This document shows positions 1-12,421 of a DNA stretch of 12,599 nucleotides, piece by piece. The position numbers and the translations under genes are program-made. Every line of letters starts with the position of its first letter. Within the stretch, counting starts at the first letter, position 1. The notes under the pieces were generated by a model that saw nothing but the letters and a program-made list of their open reading frames with translations, made no database searches and had not been told where the DNA came from. This DNA is from a virus. Its lineage: Duplodnaviria > Heunggongvirae > Uroviricota > Caudoviricetes. Location of the stretch: positions 1-12,599 of IMG/VR virus record IMGVR_UViG_3300050007_000314; one strand, 5' to 3'.

Positions 1-723
1 TAAGATCGCCCACATCAGCGGCTGTCGCCGCGCCCCCATACCCGTCAGCATAGTGGTGTAGAGCGAATCTGTGGGATGTTCGTGATACTCGTCGACAATC
101 GCACAGTGCGGTGAAGCGCCGTCACCAGGGTTACCAATCAGCGGCTCAAAACGCGCGCCATCCTCTGGCCGGTTCAGGTTGGACGCATTAACCTCGATCC
201 CGAACGCTTCCACCAGCAGCGGTGTACGCTTACACATCAGGCGAGCGGGTCTGAATACTTCCCACGCCTGCTTTTCAGTTGTGGCCCCGGAATATACTTC
301 AGCGCCAAACTCGTTATCACAGGTAAAACAGTACAGCGCCACACCCGCCGAAATAGCTGATTTCCCGTTTTTACGCGGTATCTCAGTGTAAACCTCGCGA
401 AAGCGACGAAGCTTCGAGCCTTTCTGGACCCAGCCAAAGGCGCAGCACACAATAAACAATTGCCATGCCTCCAGGGTTATCGGCATCCGCTTGAATGCCC
501 ACTCTCCTTTTGTATGTGGCAATAACTGGATAAATTTCGCAGCCTTTTCTGCCATGTCTTTATCGAAACGGTAACGAAATTTCTTACTCTTTTCAGCCGC
601 CATGTCATCGATATGACGCTGGCAGGCCTGAATGACAAACTGGCACGCCGGGATTTTCCCCCGCACAACGTTGCGGGCGTATTGATTCGCGGCGTTTACG
701 TTGGGGTACGATTTCCGGCTCAT
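1..723 (-). CDS. Phage terminase large subunit (TerL), N-terminal ~240 codons; gene runs off the left edge of the window
   Basis: Minus-strand frame is open from ATG at 721-723 to position 1 with no stop. It is absent from the ORF track only because it has no stop inside the window. Translation [29 protein letters not shown]...[20 protein letters not shown]...[35 protein letters not shown] has a Walker A-like NGKS and Walker B-like IVDEYHE, typical of terminase ATPase domains. Start ATG overlaps the terS stop (ATGA at 720-723). Confidence 0.85.
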
Positions 724-3312: not shown

Positions 3313-3685
3313 CTGAACCTCCCCGGCGCGTTATCAGCGCCACCAGCGAGCCGACATCCTGATTATTCAGGAACGTCAGGATTTTGACGGCTAAAGCAGA
3401 AACGATTACGGCGCCAATGGCATCCAGTGGTTTATCACTGTAGCCGGTCGCCTGAGCCAGCTTTGAACCCACCAGCCCGGAACAAAGGATCCCCGCGATA
3501 TACGACACCAGAAAATATGCCAGCCGACGCGTTGCACTCAGGTCAGCAGCCGTTGCAATGTAAAATACAGCTCCGGCAAATGCACCAAACACCACGCCAT
3601 AATCGGTTCCGGAAAGAAATCCATAGACGCTGGCCCCCGTCAGGACACCACCAGCCAGCCCAGTACCGGAAATCGGATCGGACAT
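3299..3685 (-). CDS. Holin-like membrane protein (128 aa), first gene of the lysis cassette
   Basis: ATG at 3683-3685 with GAGGGGG RBS. Gly/Ala-rich polytopic membrane protein (GLAGGVLTGASVYGFLSG..., VVFGAFAGAVFYIATA..., LAYFLVSYIAGILCSGLVG..., AIGAVIVSALAVKILTF). Function inferred from position; no specific family recognised. Confidence 0.55.
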   Translation of the reverse strand: MSDPISGTGLAGGVLTGASVYGFLSGTDYGVVFGAFAGAVFYIATAADLSATRRLAYFLVSYIAGILCSGLVGSKLAQATGYSDKPLDAIGAVIVSALAVKILTFLNNQDVGSLVALITRRGGSGGTK

Positions 3686-4233: not shown

Positions 4234-4944
4234 TCACATTTCTGCCACTTTGAGGGCGTCTTCTTCCTCATAGTATTCAAGAGCCATGGCCAGCGCAGAT
4301 TCATCAAGCTGGGTAAAAGCGGCCTTTAACCCAGCCCAGTGCCCTGAATAGACGCGCAACCATGTCGAACGGTCAACGCTAACCATGCGGGCCAACGCTG
4401 CACTAGCATAGTCTTTATAGGTTTCATTATTTCTGGTTGCGGCAATTTCCTGCCCTGCCAGCCATACCAGGCCAATCAGTTTCTTTACTACGCGCTCCTG
4501 AAGGGAGTTATCACCCAGGCATTTCTGATAAGTTTTCCAGACGTATTCACACATCATCACCTGGTGCTTATAGCTAAGGTCAAAACCGTAGCAGTACCGC
4601 AACCAGGCCTGCTGGTATCCACTAAGCGCGGACACTGCCCTACGCCACGGCGCGGACTCAAATTCCGCATCTTTTATCGGCGGCATTGGCCTGCGGCGGC
4701 TGCGTGTTTCCAGTACATACAGTGGCGCGGAAAGCGAGTTAACAAAGCGTGGCCCCTTCTCTCCTTCGAGTTCGACGAGGTGAATTCCACGGCGCGGGGT
4801 GGCATTTTTGTCTGCTGGTGGGTGTTCACTGAAAGCCTCAAGCTGCCCTTTTGTTCCCCCAGAGAGGTCAGGTAGCGCGCGGCGCAATTCTATTCTTACA
4901 AAATTCAGGTCTTGTTGATTCATGCTTCTTTGCGCTCCATACAC
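4234..4944 (-). CDS. Putative late-gene antiterminator (Q-like), 229-236 aa
   Basis: ORF track 4234..4944 (GTG start; alternative ATG at 4921-4923 giving MNQQDLNFVR...). The call is positional: directly upstream of a promoter/terminator interval and the lysis cassette, downstream of a DUF968-like gene, as in many lambdoid prophages. No sequence similarity to lambda Q is claimed. Confidence 0.5.
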   Translation of the reverse strand: MYGAQRSMNQQDLNFVRIELRRALPDLSGGTKGQLEAFSEHPPADKNATPRRGIHLVELEGEKGPRFVNSLSAPLYVLETRSRRRPMPPIKDAEFESAPWRRAVSALSGYQQAWLRYCYGFDLSYKHQVMMCEYVWKTYQKCLGDNSLQERVVKKLIGLVWLAGQEIAATRNNETYKDYASAALARMVSVDRSTWLRVYSGHWAGLKAAFTQLDESALAMALEYYEEEDALKVAEM

Positions 4945-5940
4945 TTAAGCTTTCGCAATTACGCCGATCGACAGCGCCCGATCCATAAAACGCAGTAGCA
5001 GCTCAAGCTGCGTACCATGCTTCTGCTCGAATGCTGGTACATCGGCGTGTAACTCGTCGTGGCACTCTCTGCACAGAGGGATCACGAAGAGGTCATGGGC
5101 TTTTGTTGCTGTACCACCCATACCGTGCCCTACGATATGGTGCGGATCATCTGCTGGCCGTCGGCAACACTCACAGGGTTGTGTTTTAACCCAGCGGGTG
5201 TACGTCTCATTTACCCAGCGGCGACGTTTTGGCCTGAGCATAAAAGATTCCGGGGACTCCGGATCGACGGTTAGCGTCAGTATTGCCTTTTGGGTTTCCA
5301 CATCCAGGCTGTCAGACCGCCGAGCTGGTAACGTATCAATCGACCTGGCTTTTTCCTGCATAATGCTGATGGCCGGCGGCATAGGTACGATGTCACTTTC
5401 CCGGTAAACAGATAATAATGGTTCGTCTGGCAACCGAAGTGCCCGTTGCGCCATTCCTTCGGTGACAGCATCAGCGACACCAGACTGAACCGCCCACCAG
5501 CAAAGCTCGGCTAAAGAGAGGGAGCGCTCTTTGTTGTGGCCAAGCCCAACCAGTACGGTATCAACAATCCATTCGGCAACATTGCTCAGCGCAAGCGCCT
5601 GTAATCTCTCCGTTGACTGACCGCGCAATTTGTTATCGCAGTGCCAGCACACCACTAACGCGCCAGGAGGATGCCATAGTGTTGTTAGCTCGGCATGATG
5701 GTAGTCAGAAACAGGGTACTGACACTTTTTAACGCGCTGACGAAGCCAGTACTCAAGCCCGGCCATACCACCAGCAGCAGTAATTACCCGTTCATCGGTG
5801 AAGAAAGTGTGAAGGCTGGCATCCTCCAGTAGCGGTTGCCGTGCATCGGGGATCCGACCAGACGGAAGCCTGGCCATGTTTTCAGGCTCACGCTCAACGA
5901 GCACACGACCTGCAGGGGTAAGTAAGGCTCTCAATGCCAA
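4945..5940 (-). CDS. DUF968-like phage protein (YdfU-like) with C-terminal Cys/His HNH-like zinc-binding motif
   Basis: 331-aa ORF. C-terminal region PCECCRRPADDPHHIVGHGMGGTATKAHDLFVIPLCRECHDELH resembles an HNH/zinc-ribbon nuclease-like motif. Placement between the Nin-like region and the Q-like gene matches recalled DUF968 genes in lambdoid prophages. Start is uncertain: TTG at 5940 or ATG at 5875-5877. Confidence 0.6.
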   Translation of the reverse strand: MALRALLTPAGRVLVEREPENMARLPSGRIPDARQPLLEDASLHTFFTDERVITAAGGMAGLEYWLRQRVKKCQYPVSDYHHAELTTLWHPPGALVVCWHCDNKLRGQSTERLQALALSNVAEWIVDTVLVGLGHNKERSLSLAELCWWAVQSGVADAVTEGMAQRALRLPDEPLLSVYRESDIVPMPPAISIMQEKARSIDTLPARRSDSLDVETQKAILTLTVDPESPESFMLRPKRRRWVNETYTRWVKTQPCECCRRPADDPHHIVGHGMGGTATKAHDLFVIPLCRECHDELHADVPAFEQKHGTQLELLLRFMDRALSIGVIAKA

Positions 5941-5944
5941 CCCC

Positions 5945-6466
5945 TTATACCGTCAGATCTTTAAATTTCTGTACGGCCTTCCCCATATCCGCCATTGCAT
6001 CCACAAACTCATCAAACTTACGGCTTGCCATTCCATAAGCCTGTAGGATTTCAAGTTTCAGAGGATCGAGTTGTTTTTTGATTTCAGCTCGGTCACCGGC
6101 CTTTTTTTCAGCTTCTTCAGCGGCGCGAATGAGGGCTTCAGCCTGCTTGCGTAATTCTTCAGGGGTCACGGTTGACTTATTCATAGTGGCTTCCTTCAAT
6201 GGCTTCGACGACGCAATAACCGGCGCCACGGATTTATGACCAAATTTAGGGTGATGCAGGGTTGTTGTCCTGCCGTCATCAGTGACACAGAGCAGGCTGT
6301 TTTCGCGGATGATTTCGATCAGGGTTTCTTTATCCTTCCGACTCAACGAGCTATAAGCTGATACCTTGTGCGTCAGATGGGTAAGAGTTGCCCCATCGGG
6401 TTGTTTCTCAACAAACCGTTTAACCCTGGACAATACTGGCTGAAGGTGCGGAGGGGTCACTCTCAC
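5945..6466 (-). CDS. Hypothetical protein (173 aa), translationally coupled to the upstream antirepressor-like gene
   Basis: GTG start overlapping the stop of the upstream gene (GTGA at 6463-6466), with a G-rich RBS-like stretch upstream. C-terminal part is a charged, helix-prone region (EELRKQAEALIRAAEEAEKKAGDRAEIKKQLDPLKLEIL). No family recognised. Confidence 0.5.
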   Translation of the reverse strand: MRVTPPHLQPVLSRVKRFVEKQPDGATLTHLTHKVSAYSSLSRKDKETLIEIIRENSLLCVTDDGRTTTLHHPKFGHKSVAPVIASSKPLKEATMNKSTVTPEELRKQAEALIRAAEEAEKKAGDRAEIKKQLDPLKLEILQAYGMASRKFDEFVDAMADMGKAVQKFKDLTV

Positions 6467-7347
6467 TGGAGCCCCCCTGCTAAATCTTTGTCGTGGGTAA
6501 AACTACCGTTCCAGGTGACCTTCATCGGAAGCTTTCCCTTCAGGTAGTTTTTGTACAGCCAGACAGCGCCTTCGCGCAGCAAGACGGGCTGGTAGGAAGT
6601 AAAGCTCACTGCAGAGTTTGGCGATACTTTACTGCTTTTCTCGGTGAGGTATTTGTCGCGGGCATACGAGCGTACACGCCACTGTGCGCTGCGGCCTTCG
6701 GGATTGTCATCGTACAGCCAGTTAGCAGAGACAAGCCAGGCACTGATCTTGGAGGTATTCACACCATTCAGACGCTTACAGAACTGTACAGGGGAAAGCC
6801 CGTCAGTGAAGAGACTCTCGAGATGCTCGATATATTCGGCCTGCTGGTGGGTGAGTGCTTCAGCCTGCTGCTTTGCCTCCATAGCGTCCGCCCAGGCTCG
6901 CGCTAAAGTAATTGGATCAGACATATTGGGCAGCATGACACCGTGGACCTCACGAAGATTGAAGTAATGATCTTCAAGCTGTTCAAAGAAGTCCCAGGCT
7001 AATTCGGTTTCAAGCATTTTCGCATGGCGGGAAGCTCCACGCTCAGTCCAAAGAATAAGTGAAGTAGTGTGTTTATTAACCACATCGCTAAATGATAGTC
7101 GGAACGATTTCAGCTCATCACCAGTGATTTTGAAGAAGTGTTTACCCTCGACAAAGCGTTGCTCGTTTCGAGCGAAGTTTTGCTGAATTCTTACTGGTGT
7201 TGTGCCGTAACCGGCAGCAAGGGAATCCGTTGTCACTACGCGTTGATTGCGATAGGTGATCACCGGAACCGACGAGTGATTAACGGAAATTACTGATGAA
7301 GTGCTATTTTCGGGCGTAGCAGTGCCCCTAACATGATGATTGCTCAT
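6463..7347 (-). CDS. Phage antirepressor/regulatory protein (Rha/ORF6N-like N-terminal domain, KilA-C-like C-terminal region)
   Basis: ORF track 6463..7452. I favour the ATG at 7345-7347 (MSNHHVRGTATPE..., GGAGAG RBS), but the ATG at 7450-7452 also has an RBS-like AGAGGTGG and would overlap rusA by 19 nt. N-terminal region VITYRNQRVVTTDSLAAGYGTTPVRIQQNFARNEQRFVEGKHFFKITGDELKSF resembles phage Rha/antirepressor N-domains from memory; C-terminal half is helical. Family assignment is from recall, not search. Confidence 0.5.
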   Translation of the reverse strand: MSNHHVRGTATPENSTSSVISVNHSSVPVITYRNQRVVTTDSLAAGYGTTPVRIQQNFARNEQRFVEGKHFFKITGDELKSFRLSFSDVVNKHTTSLILWTERGASRHAKMLETELAWDFFEQLEDHYFNLREVHGVMLPNMSDPITLARAWADAMEAKQQAEALTHQQAEYIEHLESLFTDGLSPVQFCKRLNGVNTSKISAWLVSANWLYDDNPEGRSAQWRVRSYARDKYLTEKSSKVSPNSAVSFTSYQPVLLREGAVWLYKNYLKGKLPMKVTWNGSFTHDKDLAGGLQ

Positions 7348-7433
7348 ATTCTCTCCATACTCTGATTGTTGCGACGAGCCTGCACGCCCGTTTCGCTTGC
7401 ACTTTCCGACATTACTGCCATATCGACCAATAT

Positions 7434-7832
7434 TCAACCCACAGCTGGACATATAACCACCTCTTTTTTATATGCCGTTATGGTTATCTCAACTTTTCCC
7501 TTCGGTACTATTGGTCCCCATTCCACCAGCATGCGCTTAATCTGGCTGTCGTCTTCCCAGACACCCGCATGCGTCAGCGCGTCAAACAGGGCTTTGTTGT
7601 AATTATCGATATCCCGACGGCGCGCATCCGGTGGGTACAGAGTGATTTCTACCGCTGCCAGTTCAGTCGATGGCTTCGGGAGACGTCGTAATTGCTCAAT
7701 GATCGCCACGCAGGCAGCGCTCTGGTATTTACGACCATCAGAGCTAATGAGGTGACGACCGGCCAGCGGCCCCTTGTTAGGGGCGCGCCAGTAAGTGTTC
7801 ACGCTCGGAGGAAAAGGCAGGATAAGTTTCAC
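7434..7832 (-). CDS. rusA: Holliday junction resolvase RusA (crossover junction endodeoxyribonuclease)
   Basis: 132-aa product MKLILPFPPSVNTYWRAPNKGPLAGRHLISSDGRKYQ...DIDNYNKALFDALTHAGVWEDDSQI is the characteristic RusA sequence pattern. GTG start overlaps the stop of the upstream methyltransferase (GTGA); GGGGAGAGG RBS. Confidence 0.9.
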   Translation of the reverse strand: MKLILPFPPSVNTYWRAPNKGPLAGRHLISSDGRKYQSAACVAIIEQLRRLPKPSTELAAVEITLYPPDARRRDIDNYNKALFDALTHAGVWEDDSQIKRMLVEWGPIVPKGKVEITITAYKKEVVICPAVG

Positions 7833-8707
7833 GCGGCCTCTCCCCGCATATTGCGAACAAGTTCAGAAGCTGCAGTAATGATTTCGCTGGTGGCCGTTCG
7901 TTCCAGCCAGAGTTGATTTATGTTGGCTTTCAGCTTGTTCTGCTGAGCCTCACTCAATACGTCAACGCCTTCCACTTGGTTGAACACAAGACCAACCTCG
8001 AGAGGCCAGATACGTGACTCAGTTTCCGGTGTTGCTGCTGGTTCCATGGCTGCCTGCATTGCGATTGTTTGCTCTTTACTAACGGCGAATTGAGCCAAAG
8101 CCATAAATGCCCGCCCTTTTTCCTCCAGTTCTGTGCGGTTGATATAGCTGAACCGCTCACCCCGCCACGACTTATCGAATACAGCTATGGCACCGGCAAA
8201 AAACGCGCTGGTGGGTTTCTGTTTTTCGTCAGCAGGTACAAACCACACAGGCAGATCGAACCCAATACGACCACGAATAAACATGATGTGATCGGCATCT
8301 TCCGGCCACCATGTTTCACTTGTGGCAGACTTCACCAGGTAAATATAGCGACCACCTCTTTCACGCATGTCCATGGTGTGATTCATGATGTGTGTCATAC
8401 CCGTAATCGCCTGCTTGTCGTGATACTGGGAGCGGCTATATGGAGGGTTGGCAAAAGCCGCGCCGCCCAGTTCATCCAGACGTTCAGACCAGTTCTGTGT
8501 CAGCGCGTTATCTTCGGCGGTGTACCATGCCGGACACTTCGCGTTATCGTCGTCAGCAAACAGGTCCAGAACTAATGGACCAAATAGCGCGTTGATCCCC
8601 CAGAAAAGCAGATCCGGTGTCCGCCACTGATCGCCAACTTCTTTCAATTCGTGGGCTGGTTGGCTACGTAGTGCCGCCAGCGCCTGGCAATATTTGTTTA
8701 ACGTCAT
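7829..8707 (-). CDS. Phage DNA N6-adenine methyltransferase (Dam-family) with a ~100-aa C-terminal extension
   Basis: 292-aa ORF whose ATG start overlaps the stop of the replication gene (ATGA). N-terminal two-thirds has the phage Dam-type pattern (WRTPDLLFWGINALFGPLVLDLFA ... AAFANPPYS, with the NPPY catalytic motif). C-terminal ~100 aa (RTELEEKGRAFMALAQFAVSKEQ...) is unassigned. Confidence 0.8.
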   Translation of the reverse strand: MTLNKYCQALAALRSQPAHELKEVGDQWRTPDLLFWGINALFGPLVLDLFADDDNAKCPAWYTAEDNALTQNWSERLDELGGAAFANPPYSRSQYHDKQAITGMTHIMNHTMDMRERGGRYIYLVKSATSETWWPEDADHIMFIRGRIGFDLPVWFVPADEKQKPTSAFFAGAIAVFDKSWRGERFSYINRTELEEKGRAFMALAQFAVSKEQTIAMQAAMEPAATPETESRIWPLEVGLVFNQVEGVDVLSEAQQNKLKANINQLWLERTATSEIITAASELVRNMRGEAA

Positions 8708-9561
8708 CCTCTGAACCCCGCAGGAATCGTTGTATCAACCGGACCAAAAGCCATCACATCGCGCTTTTTCGCACCCCAGTCAGCGCGTTTAGGCCGTCCT
8801 TTCTGATCCCAGCGGGTAGCGCTTTGCAGATAGCTCTCGAATTTCTTCGGGCCAAACAGCGTTTCCGGCCTCATGTACTGGTACTGCTCGTCGTTCTCGT
8901 GCCAGTGCTCATGCTTCAGGTCGATAACCAGTTGCAGGTCTGCAACGCTGTACCCCTCACGCAGTCGGGCACGGATGTTCTCCAGGGAGGTTTTTGATTT
9001 CTGATACCGGGATCCGCTGATCTGGTTCAAATGGGACAAAACCAAAATCGCCTGGTCAGTAATCACGACTTCAGGGTCTGGTTGCGCCGCAACCGGACAA
9101 GAGGGTTTTGAAGTTACTTGTGGATCTTGTGTTGATTTTACTGACGGATCCCCGCCAGATTCTGACGGGTCAAAACCGCCGTTTTTGCCAGATTTCGACG
9201 GGTCAGTTTTTGAGGCGTCAAATTTTGATGCGTCAGATTTTGACGTGTCAGAATCTGACAGTTGAGAAAATGCGGCAGCCTGAAGTTTCGCCACATTCAG
9301 ACGATACACGTTCGAAGCATTACGGTTACCATTACGGCGCTGTGTACGCGTGAGCCAGCCATCTTTTTCAAGCTTAGCGATTGCCGTTCTGATAGTGCTC
9401 GGCCCTGCGCCAAGCTGACGAGCAATAGTTTCAATGGACGGCCAGCACACCCCCTCATCGCTGCTGAAATCAGCAAGGCGAGCCATGATCGCGACACTAG
9501 ACAACTTCATGCCCGACGCCGCGCAACCATCCCATACGTAGCCGGTTAATTTAGTGCTCAT
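8704..9561 (-). CDS. Replication initiator protein (lambda O-like role): N-terminal HTH domain, low-complexity acidic Ser/Asp/Lys linker, conserved phage replication C-terminal domain
   Basis: 285-aa ORF with ATG at 9559-9561. N-terminal winged-HTH-like region (LSSVAIMARLADFSSDEGVCWPSIETIARQLGAGPSTIRTAIAKLEKDGWLTR), a central repeat linker SDSDTSKSDASKFDASKTDPSKSGKNGGFDPSESGGDPS, and a C-terminal block (ITDQAILVLSHLNQISGSRYQKSKTSLENIRARLREGYSVADLQLVIDLKHEHWHENDEQYQYMRPETLFGPKKFESYL) recalled as the conserved C-terminus of phage replication initiators. Iteron-like DNA repeats are embedded in the linker-coding region. Confidence 0.7.
   Translation of the reverse strand: MSTKLTGYVWDGCAASGMKLSSVAIMARLADFSSDEGVCWPSIETIARQLGAGPSTIRTAIAKLEKDGWLTRTQRRNGNRNASNVYRLNVAKLQAAAFSQLSDSDTSKSDASKFDASKTDPSKSGKNGGFDPSESGGDPSVKSTQDPQVTSKPSCPVAAQPDPEVVITDQAILVLSHLNQISGSRYQKSKTSLENIRARLREGYSVADLQLVIDLKHEHWHENDEQYQYMRPETLFGPKKFESYLQSATRWDQKGRPKRADWGAKKRDVMAFGPVDTTIPAGFRG
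9137..9265. repeat. Iteron-like tandem direct repeats inside the replication initiator gene; candidate origin of replication
   Basis: Plus-strand tandem units at about 15-bp spacing: GCGTCAAATTTTGAT (9215-9229), GCGTCAGATTTTGAC (9230-9244), GTGTCAGAATCTGAC (9245-9259). Looser copies lie upstream (ACTGACGGATCC at 9140-9151, TCTGACGGGTCA at 9161-9172, TCGACGGGTCAG at 9195-9206). AT-richer flank at about 9100-9140. Analogous to ori-lambda iterons inside gene O. Confidence 0.5.
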
Positions 9562-10861: not shown

Positions 10862-11548
10862 GTGAACACACTGGCGGAAAGACTGAAAGTTGCGAGAGAA
10901 AAAACAGGGTTAAGCCAAGCTCAACTCGCTGAATCAATAGGTGTTTCTCAACAATCCGTAGCAAAAATAGAAAACGGAGATACGTTGCAACCGCGAAAGA
11001 TAAAAGAAATCGCAAATGTATTAGGCGTTAGCCAAAAGTGGTTGCAACTAGGCATTGAGGAAAATGCTTCACTTTCTGATTTTGTGGTTGGAGAGGCTGA
11101 AAGTGCCAGTTTAGACCCTGCCATTTTCGCTGACATACCAGTACTAGATGTAGAGTTATCAGCAGGAAATGGTTGTGAAGCCGAAATTGTAGAGTCTGTA
11201 ATTGACTGGTTTCCTATCCGAAGAATGGATCTAAGGAAAGCTGGAGTCAGCGCTTCAAATGCTAGGATCGTAAAAATTTGGGGGAACAGCTTATTGCCAG
11301 TTCTCAATAACGGCGATCATGTTGCTGTTGATATCGCACAGACAAACCCTATTCGAGATGGCGATTTATACGCTGTCAGAGATGGGGTCCTGCTAAGGGT
11401 CAAAGTGCTAATAAACCAACCTGATGGTGGTTTAATTATAAGAAGCTTCAACAAAGATGAGTATCCAGATGAAATACTCACCTTCAATGAACGCCGCGCA
11501 AGAATTCATGTTATCGGCAGGGTGTTTTGGTCATCACGTTCATGGTAA
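10862..11548 (+). CDS. cI-like prophage repressor (N-terminal XRE-type HTH, C-terminal S24 LexA-like autopeptidase domain)
   Basis: 228-aa ORF with GTG start and a G-rich RBS (AAGGGGGG) about 5 nt upstream. N-terminal HTH LSQAQLAESIGVSQQSVAKIENGD; C-terminal S24-like region with the Ser motif in KIWGNSLLPVLNNGDHVAVD and a downstream Lys (LLRVKVL). Only substantial plus-strand gene in the window; AT-rich. Confidence 0.9.
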   Translation: MNTLAERLKVAREKTGLSQAQLAESIGVSQQSVAKIENGDTLQPRKIKEIANVLGVSQKWLQLGIEENASLSDFVVGEAESASLDPAIFADIPVLDVELSAGNGCEAEIVESVIDWFPIRRMDLRKAGVSASNARIVKIWGNSLLPVLNNGDHVAVDIAQTNPIRDGDLYAVRDGVLLRVKVLINQPDGGLIIRSFNKDEYPDEILTFNERRARIHVIGRVFWSSRSW

Positions 11549-12421
11549 TACGCCAAATAACATTTCCTCTGAGATAATTTTTAGCTTTGCGCCATTATCG
11601 TCGCGATAGCTAACAGCTTTCTCTATCTTTCTCCCGTGGCTGGAAAATTTCCAGTCTCTGGATGATAGGGTTCCGACTACAAGGAAGTCCAGTTTTTGGG
11701 TAATTCCATTACTTATTTTCCCCCCTGCACTTTTGATCCGTTCCTCTACCACCGCTCGCTTACCTGCCATAAAGGTACCCGTTAAACAGTAGGTTTTGTC
11801 CGTAAGATCAACGACTACATTATTATCAATCGGTAGCCTCGTCGCCAATCCATCAACAACACCGCTATCTAGATCGCATCCAGTAAAGTCAACAAGTGCT
11901 TTATGTAGAGTTTCGCTTTCTTCTGGAGTTATTACCCCATCGTTAAGGATATCTTTTATTAGAATGTACAAATCCTTCCCTGGGTAGTTACTCTTAAGAG
12001 CCCCATTTTGTGTTAACCACCAGTCGAGATATCTAATTTCATCTTCCGTCAAGGTCCTATCCGAGATCAGCCCTTTACACAATCCACTAAGAAGATGTAG
12101 ATCCATTTCAGCAGAATAAAAATCAATTCCAGGAATATCTAAAATTTCTCTTTGGATTTTTGTCAGACTGTTTTTGAGTTCTTTTCTTTCTTCCTCTGTA
12201 ATCACCCCATCAGCTAAAATATCTGAGACCCTCGCCGATAGACTCTTAATAACCCCATTTCTTATAATTTGATTTGCTTCAAGTAGCCATGTGTCAAGGT
12301 AAAGAACTTCCTCATCTCTTACCACCCCATCAGCAACAATACCATCAATGATACTGATTAGGTTCGCAAACAACTTATCTCTATTGTGTGTGTAATTAAA
12401 TACGTAAAGCTTGTCTTCCAT
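11540..12421 (-). CDS. Accessory protein of unknown function: N-terminal TerB-like repeat region plus C-terminal BRCT-like domain (293 aa)
   Basis: ATG at 12419-12421 with AGGAGG 5 nt upstream. Four repeats of an ADG-type helix motif (IIDGIVADGVVRDEEVLYL, VSDILADGVITEEERKEL, GLISDRTLTEDEIRYL, IKDILNDGVITPEESETL) resembling TerB domains. C-terminal DKTYCLTGTFMAGKRAVVEERIKSAGGKISNGITQKLDFLVVG...AKLKIISEEMLFGVL resembles the BRCT domain of NAD-dependent DNA ligases. GC roughly 35-40 percent by eye. Convergent with cI, 9-nt 3-prime overlap. Confidence 0.7.
   Translation of the reverse strand: MEDKLYVFNYTHNRDKLFANLISIIDGIVADGVVRDEEVLYLDTWLLEANQIIRNGVIKSLSARVSDILADGVITEEERKELKNSLTKIQREILDIPGIDFYSAEMDLHLLSGLCKGLISDRTLTEDEIRYLDWWLTQNGALKSNYPGKDLYILIKDILNDGVITPEESETLHKALVDFTGCDLDSGVVDGLATRLPIDNNVVVDLTDKTYCLTGTFMAGKRAVVEERIKSAGGKISNGITQKLDFLVVGTLSSRDWKFSSHGRKIEKAVSYRDDNGAKLKIISEEMLFGVLP

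Follow-up and report, generated by a model that had tools for sequence, protein, structure and literature searches.

The initiator gene and its surroundings

The window, i.e. the whole stretch of 12,599 nt that was analysed, carries an operon of the lambdoid early-right type. A cI-like repressor gene (10862-11548, plus strand) is followed by cro-like and cII-like genes, a gene of unknown function, the replication initiator gene and a Dam methylase gene, and then by genes for RusA, an antirepressor, a DUF968 protein, Q, holins, an endolysin and the small terminase subunit. The initiator gene and the gene next to it are composed as follows:

8704-9561, minus strand: replication initiator gene (285 aa), which holds the whole repeat array described below
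9262-9561, minus strand: N-terminal winged-helix domain of the initiator (N-domain), aa 1 to about 100, with Pfam HTH_36 at aa 23-70
aa about 101-165, minus strand: low-complexity linker between the N-domain and the C-domain of the initiator
8824-9042, minus strand: C-terminal Phg_2220_C/TIGR02220 domain (C-domain), aa 174-246, from Pfam and NCBIfam
7829-8707, minus strand: phage N6-adenine (Dam-type) methyltransferase gene (Pfam Dam 2.7e-45, TIGR01712 5.8e-61), whose start overlaps the initiator stop codon

When compared with Pfam, the initiator matched HTH_36 (2.1e-12) and Phg_2220_C (7e-24), and its C-domain scored above the curated cutoffs of both Pfam (84.1 bits, cutoff 27) and TIGR02220 (67.7 bits, cutoff 66.65). 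The PHROGs families matched by the protein, with E-values from 1e-50 to 1e-81, are named 'primosomal protein', 'replication initiation protein' and 'replication initiation O-like'. In addition, weak sub-threshold Pfam matches to RP-C and DnaD_N point to a predicted fold of the same class as that of the winged-helix Rep proteins of iteron plasmids.

The Phage_rep_O profile (PF04492), which recognized lambda O as a positive control with 123 bits, did not match the initiator of the window, whose best match was HTH_36; the BLASTP comparison with lambda O was likewise not significant (E 0.75). Judged by its sequence, the initiator is outside the lambda O family. Remote homology between the two proteins is possible, and HHpred gave HTH_36 and 2220_C domains for the O and O-like proteins analysed in an earlier study (PMC5509034).

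A profile search of PDB sequences with the N-domain returned only generic winged-helix regulators (best E 1.6e-4), and no PDB sequence matched the C-domain. Because the best 120 hits of the protein homologue search were all at least 98% identical, no diverse alignment was available for structure prediction; the single-sequence AlphaFold2 model was poor (mean pLDDT 46.5), with no predicted secondary structure at aa 103-162. Identical proteins are common in the genomes of Citrobacter freundii and Salmonella enterica, where they bear the public names 'GntR family transcriptional regulator' and 'conserved phage C-terminal domain-containing protein'. The former label has probably been assigned wrongly on account of the winged-helix domain.

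Among 64 relatives (see below for their selection), 35 have a Dam-like gene no further than 1.9 kb downstream from the initiator, and the association between the two genes is not obligatory; the Dam-like gene is sometimes fused to a PAPS-reductase-like domain. In 19 loci, the gene next to the initiator encodes a protein of about 160 aa of unknown function. No gene for a helicase or a helicase loader (DnaB, DnaC or lambda P type) was found at 4900-8707 of the window or among the three genes downstream of the initiator in the 64 relatives, and none is annotated in the whole genome of phage LLS, in which the O-like initiator has no other replication-type gene beside it. A single gene appears to make up the replication module.

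An ORF of 293 aa (11540-12421, minus strand) lies beside the cI-like repressor gene, with 22-30% GC in 40-bp windows around 11940-12410. At its C-terminus, the product contains a BRCT domain (Pfam 6.7e-07); it also matches, weakly, the PADLOC candidate defence family PDC-S48 (1.3e-06). The ORF may be a moron or a defence gene.

A periodic array between the two domains

The DNA encoding the linker is repetitive. The initial annotation had quoted three near-identical 15-bp units in this region, with looser copies beside them, and had interpreted them as iterons embedded in the initiator ORF. The three units are present at 9215-9229, 9230-9244 and 9245-9259, and seven copies spaced 15 bp apart were grouped into one family by a gapless repeat search, which also gave looser copies at 9153-9175 and 9186-9208. 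The sites are the following:

9188-9258: iteron array of five 15-bp units in register (from repeat search, motif scan and 65-locus alignment)
9248-9258, 9233-9243, 9218-9228 and 9203-9213: array cores, followed by a degenerate core at 9188-9198
9155-9165: distal sixth site, reading TCAGAATCTGG in gene sense, and CCAGAATCTGG in many relatives

The core of each unit is an 11-bp palindrome, TCArA-w-TcTGA, and its dyad symmetry is exemplified by 9247-9259, which reads GTCAGAATCTGAC. The sixth site starts 48 bp from the start of the last full unit, a spacing found again in 34 relatives, and falls in the nearly invariant block described below. Together, the six sites extend over 9155-9258, which corresponds to aa 102-137 of 285, between HTH_36 and Phg_2220_C; the repeats are therefore within the initiator ORF, as had been annotated. 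Tandem Repeats Finder located only two tandem arrays in the 12.6-kb window, and the stronger one is at 9189-9252 (period 15, 4.3 copies, 79% matches, score 79). The motif TCARAWTYTGA, with at most one mismatch, matched five times in the window, always within 9155-9258, as compared to 0.99 +/- 1.02 matches in shuffled windows, and none of 200 shuffles reached five.

At the protein level, the array encodes S-[K/E/D/N]-[S/F/T]-D-x pentapeptides, residues 102-125 being SDSDTSKSDASKFDASKTDPSKSG. The low-complexity peptide that had been read from the minus strand is correct, and corresponds to aa 101-129 of the ORF translation (LSDSDTSKSDASKFDASKTDPSKSGKNGG). Its proposed role as an interdomain linker agrees with the position of the repeats between two Pfam domains and with their variable copy number among relatives.

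The half-sites in the array alternate in inverted orientation, spaced 6 and 9 bp. As far as the arrangement of these half-sites can tell, the dimer site of the initiator could be either TCAGA-w-TCTGA or the junction palindrome TCTGAC-nn-GTCAGA.

Constraint on the DNA rather than on the peptide

Relatives were collected by searching one genome per species with aa 1-100 of the initiator only, i.e. with the repeats excluded from the query. The 77 loci obtained belong to Citrobacter, Kluyvera, Enterobacter, Yersinia, Pantoea, Providencia, Proteus and other genera. The repeats were present in all of the 65 distinct analysable genes, which come from many Enterobacterales genera, so that the conservation in relatives with the same N-domain, on which the initial annotation had made its interpretation depend, was indeed observed.

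In these 65 genes (59.6 kb), the motif was found 319 times in the linker and 3 times elsewhere, with 2-9 sites per gene. All of the 254 spacings between sites are multiples of 3 (15 bp in 216 cases, 48 bp in 34, 30 bp in 3 and 63 bp in one). Because one unit is 15 bp, or five codons, units can be gained or lost with the reading frame preserved; the range of 2-9 sites and the S-K-S-D-x peptide repeat both follow from this unit length.

Codon tables and a position weight matrix were built from 310 units of the 65 loci, using the N-domain of the same genes as a control. It should be noted that codon counts over the 65 genes are not phylogenetically independent and are to be read against this internal control: lysine is encoded by AAA in 193 of 193 cases in the units vs 62% in the N-domain, and asparagine by AAT in 30 of 30 vs 35%. 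Moreover, one and the same amino acid uses different codons according to its position in the unit. Glutamate is GAA at unit position 2 (43/43) but GAG at position 4 (27/32), aspartate is GAT at position 2 (37/37) but GAC at position 4 (193/238), and serine is TCA at position 1 (271/293) but TCT or TCC at position 3 (240/240); in the N-domain, TCA and TCT account for 12% and 9% of serine codons. Amino acids may also change with the bases retained. At unit position 3, any of S, F, T, P, Y, I or C may occur, while nucleotide 9 is T or C in 307 of 310 units; similarly, the residue at position 2 can be K, E, D or N, while nucleotides 5-6 keep A and A/T. Codon usage and residue variation thus show that the invariant bases fit the 11-bp palindrome TCArA-w-TcTGA and not the codon positions, and the codon choice fixed by unit position, together with amino acid changes that leave the palindrome intact, places the constraint on the DNA.

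It is conceivable that the segment is just a slippage-prone Ser/Asp/Lys linker, and that its periodicity is a by-product of recent unit duplication, with no role in cis. The copy number ranging from 2 to 9 sites and the prediction of a coil for this region (in a low-confidence model) would suit such a linker, as would the fact that the array is always in one reading frame, which implies that protein-level selection can be separated by codon statistics only, and not by context. These statistics, however, run against this explanation: different codons are fixed for the same amino acid, by unit position, across genera whose N-domains are about 73% identical in nucleotide sequence, and the bases of the palindrome are kept while amino acids change. 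In addition, unit variants are position-specific across genera, with TCAGA[T/A]TCTGAC first and TTTGAG or TTTGAC (KF) commonest last, and the neighbouring block, which is not repetitive, is also frozen at its synonymous sites. We therefore regard a linker without a function in cis as very improbable.

The palindromes might instead work at the mRNA level, forming hairpins that govern transcript stability or make translation pause between the domains, and inverted repeats of up to 37 nt, which could fold, do occur in the window. However, what is conserved is the bases, not the pairing, and the commonest unit, TCAAA-w-TCTGA (179/310), is asymmetric. No Rfam family matched in the window, and the co-variation described below follows the N-domain of the protein. 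A role in the mRNA can be given next to no credence.

A nearly invariant block, two GATC sites and an A-rich tract

Three further features were recognized on the side of the array that is downstream in gene sense:

9120-9177: nearly invariant block of about 58 nt, in gene sense GGTTTTsACCCGyCAGAATCTGGsGGGGATCCGTCAGTAAAwTCAA....GATCC
9147-9150 and 9123-9126: conserved GATC sites within the block
9106-9145: candidate unwinding element, the 40 bp with the lowest GC content in the gene, rich in A on the coding strand

The block adjoins the array and contains the sixth site. Over the 65 loci, from Citrobacter to Providencia/Proteus, its per-column identity is mostly 0.92-1.00. When block and N-domain of the same genes are compared, the frequency of the major allele at third codon positions is 0.92 vs 0.574 (Mann-Whitney p = 4e-6), and the mean pairwise nucleotide identity is 0.89 vs 0.726.

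Both GATC sites are followed by similar A-rich sequences, GATCCGTCAGTAAAATCAA and GATCCACAAGTAACTTCAA, 24 nt apart. Over the whole window, GATC is not enriched (50 occurrences vs 41.5 +/- 5.5), and it is just this conserved pair that stands out. It is possible that the phage Dam methylase modifies the two sites of the putative origin.

As to the AT-richer stretch that had been reported next to the repeats, it does exist, since 9106-9145 is the lowest-GC 40-mer of the gene, but it is modest, with 32.5% GC (the 4th percentile of the window) as compared to 20% for its lambda equivalent. In the direction of transcription, it comes directly after the last site, and it overlaps the invariant block. 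No match to the DnaA box TTWTNCACA was found in the window, and a scan for promoters and terminators around the initiator gene gave nothing above shuffles.

Co-variation of the array with the N-domain

The array and the N-domain imply each other. All of the 65 genes retrieved through the N-domain have the array; in the opposite direction, a search of viral contigs based on DNA only, requiring three phased sites, retrieved 80 arrays, and each of these is preceded, at a distance of at most 120 nt and in the same frame, by an N-domain homologue of 60-100% identity. Among these 80 loci, no array was found in a non-coding or out-of-frame context.

BLASTN showed that the initiator gene is mosaic. 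With phages SfIV, SfII and KpF5, as with many phages of Klebsiella and E. coli, the match is confined to the N-domain and the repeats (query 373-858); with Salmonella phage 118970_sal3 (L003), it is confined to the C-domain, with 92% nucleotide identity. In SfIV-type proteins, the same N-domain and array are joined to another C-domain, which BLASTP shows to be homologous to the lambda O C-domain (1e-25); the module composed of N-domain and array therefore fills the place of the origin-binding module of O. Phage 118970_sal3 has another N-domain, and the array in the same relative position is also a different one, with about six copies and a period of 23 bp:

3463-3620 of 118970_sal3: 23-bp repeat array in the linker-coding DNA of the initiator

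The initiator of this phage also has about 150 additional aa at its C-terminus.

The most diverged N-domains of the set (L076 and L077, 67% identity) have R58 replaced by I in the predicted recognition helix, and their site is changed on both half-sites, to TTCAGA-w-TCTGAA, with the peptide becoming S-E-R-S repeats. A Pseudomonas relative with 40% identity has unrelated GC-rich repeats. The co-variation with the N-domain that the initial annotation had anticipated is thus found in three forms, in that the array is kept when the C-domain is swapped, is replaced when the N-domain is swapped, and is altered symmetrically along with a diverged N-domain. In the relative LLS (L088), a plaque-forming phage with a complete genome of 42.9 kb, the gene of the 'O family protein' contains every exact match to the motif as well as the best tandem repeat of the genome.

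The junction between N-domain and C-domain in these mosaics is just downstream of the array, at about aa 150-160. This might suggest that the array is a recombination 'linker' at the module boundary, or else a site for some other host or phage factor, and that its conservation comes from frequent exchange. Exchange alone, however, would leave a palindromic array with a 15-bp period unexplained, and neither the symmetric co-variation with the recognition helix nor the absence of the array from all other contexts favours this view, which appears extremely improbable.

Some loci are peculiar in other respects. In E. coli ECDA1023 and ECGI0523 (L075/L081 and L084/L085), the initiator gene is split, with residues 1-79 fused to unrelated sequence at one site of the chromosome and residues 79 to the end about 1.25 Mb away, which suggests an inversion or rearrangement between two prophages. 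Three loci titled Vagococcus sp., Chryseobacterium sp. and Martelella alba (L022, L026 and L053) carry an initiator gene of the enterobacterial type, with 80-90% identity, and are likely to come from contaminated or mislabelled assemblies.

A putative replication origin inside the initiator gene

The lambda origin is made of four iterons within gene O, which are bound by the N-terminal domain of O and lie beside an AT-rich unwinding element. With reference to this model, the initial annotation had proposed that the repeats are the prophage origin and double as coding sequence for a linker. Conservation and co-variation support this reading, and we consider it quite probable that the array and the block constitute the replication origin of a Citrobacter/Salmonella-type lambdoid prophage, located inside its own initiator gene, as in lambda.

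We infer initiator binding, unwinding and helicase recruitment as follows. Dimers of the N-domain would bind the alternating inverted half-sites to give an O-some-like nucleoprotein complex. This complex, aided by transcription of the early-right operon, would open the adjoining A-rich stretch (about 9106-9145), and the Phg_2220_C domain would recruit the host DnaB helicase. As a phage gene of the P, DnaC or DnaB type is absent, the loader of the host itself would be needed in this model. A literature search found no paper on the motif, on the origin of this initiator family or on the function of Phg_2220_C; in the SfIV genome paper, orf41-45 are merely named 'replication module'.

The sites could be bound by the initiator for the purpose of autoregulation or copy control, through titration, handcuffing or a roadblock in its own transcript, with the true origin elsewhere in the prophage. 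Such dual roles are known for plasmid iterons, and the moderate AT-richness of the tract and the absence of DnaA boxes from the window would be in keeping with them. On the other hand, neither the window nor the whole LLS genome contains another repeat cluster; the array, the conserved block and the lowest-GC tract reproduce the layout of ori-lambda; and the module is exchanged with lambda O-type C-domains as an origin-binding module should be. A function restricted to control is, in our opinion, distinctly unlikely, and neither it nor the recombination linker discussed above accounts for the full lambda-like layout.

The origin reading can be taken further, although this extension is to be considered unlikely: the origin might be loader-less and methylation-gated, with a lone winged-helix plus Phg_2220_C initiator recruiting DnaB/DnaC, with Dam methylation and SeqA controlling firing at the two invariant GATC sites, which lie on either side of the putative A-rich unwinding tract, and with the often adjacent phage Dam gene freeing the phage from the methylation state of the host. 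On this view, the 15-bp unit, being in frame, would be an adaptation by which the number of sites can evolve with the gene left intact.

The proposed origin is a testable one, defined by its sites, their spacing and a candidate unwinding tract. The replication module to which it belongs is widespread among the prophages of Enterobacterales, and examples are Shigella phages of the SfII/SfIV/SfV type, Klebsiella, Yersinia and Citrobacter phages and E. coli phage LLS. The initiator is often mislabelled in public databases, and the finding is useful for annotation. Finally, the array represents a clean case of dual coding, in which putative DNA-binding sites dictate the peptide of a linker, and this matters for dN/dS analysis, recoding and phage engineering.

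Comparison with known origins

Iteron plasmid origins such as those of P1 (oriR), R6K, pSC101 and F combine direct repeats, to which a winged-helix initiator binds, with an AT-rich unwinding element alongside, and GATC methylation is used by P1 oriR as well as by oriC. Plasmid iterons are, however, non-coding and usually accompanied by DnaA boxes, whereas the array of the window is coding and has no DnaA boxes, and kinship at the sequence level is limited to sub-threshold matches.

Other parallels come from lambdoid phages. Gene 18 of Salmonella phages P22 and L encodes distantly related lambdoid initiators with in-gene repeats of their own, which have been read as origins; there are four repeats of about 20 bp in P22 and six imprecise 11-bp repeats, TGTCCAACGGA, in L (PMC8022706). 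The site length in L (11 bp) is similar to that of the 11-bp core found here, while the motif is different. In addition, P22 and L encode a DnaB-type helicase (gene 12) beside the initiator (PMC8022706), whereas no gene for a DnaB-type helicase is present here.

In lambda and Stx phages, the origin, made of iterons and an AT-rich tract, is in the middle of gene O, and the number of iterons can be four or six, with 13 additional aa in the latter case (PMC7466680). In our analysis of lambda O, the iterons were found at aa 117-145, spaced 20, 24 and 23 bp and followed by an A-rich tract with 20% GC (O-sense strand). The differences between the window and ori-lambda concern the N-domain, which matches HTH_36 and not Phage_rep_O, and the sites, whose core is 11 bp (18 bp in lambda) and whose spacing is exactly 15 bp (20-24 bp in lambda). 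This period, unlike that of lambda, is a multiple of 3, and the peptide repeat in the initiator is a consequence of it. Furthermore, the AT tract is less pronounced (32.5% GC vs 20% GC), the initiator gene is followed by a Dam methylase gene instead of a P-type loader gene, and the block next to the array has two invariant GATC sites.

The similarities extend to the whole organization. As in ori-lambda (lambda, 933W, P27), the putative origin is in the DNA between the DNA-binding N-domain and the C-domain of the initiator, and it comprises at least four direct repeats that are each symmetric about a dyad. The 40 bp of the gene with the lowest GC content, A-rich and a candidate for the unwinding tract although only mildly AT-rich, come directly downstream in the direction of transcription, where lambda has its AT-rich tract. 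Here, too, the number of iterons differs among relatives and adds residues to the protein; the gene has the same position in the operon, after cII; and the SfIV-type relatives even carry a C-domain homologous to that of lambda O. An origin of the lambda kind within the initiator gene is already well known, and the present case leaves the current understanding of phage replication unchanged: it is a further example, not a new kind of system.
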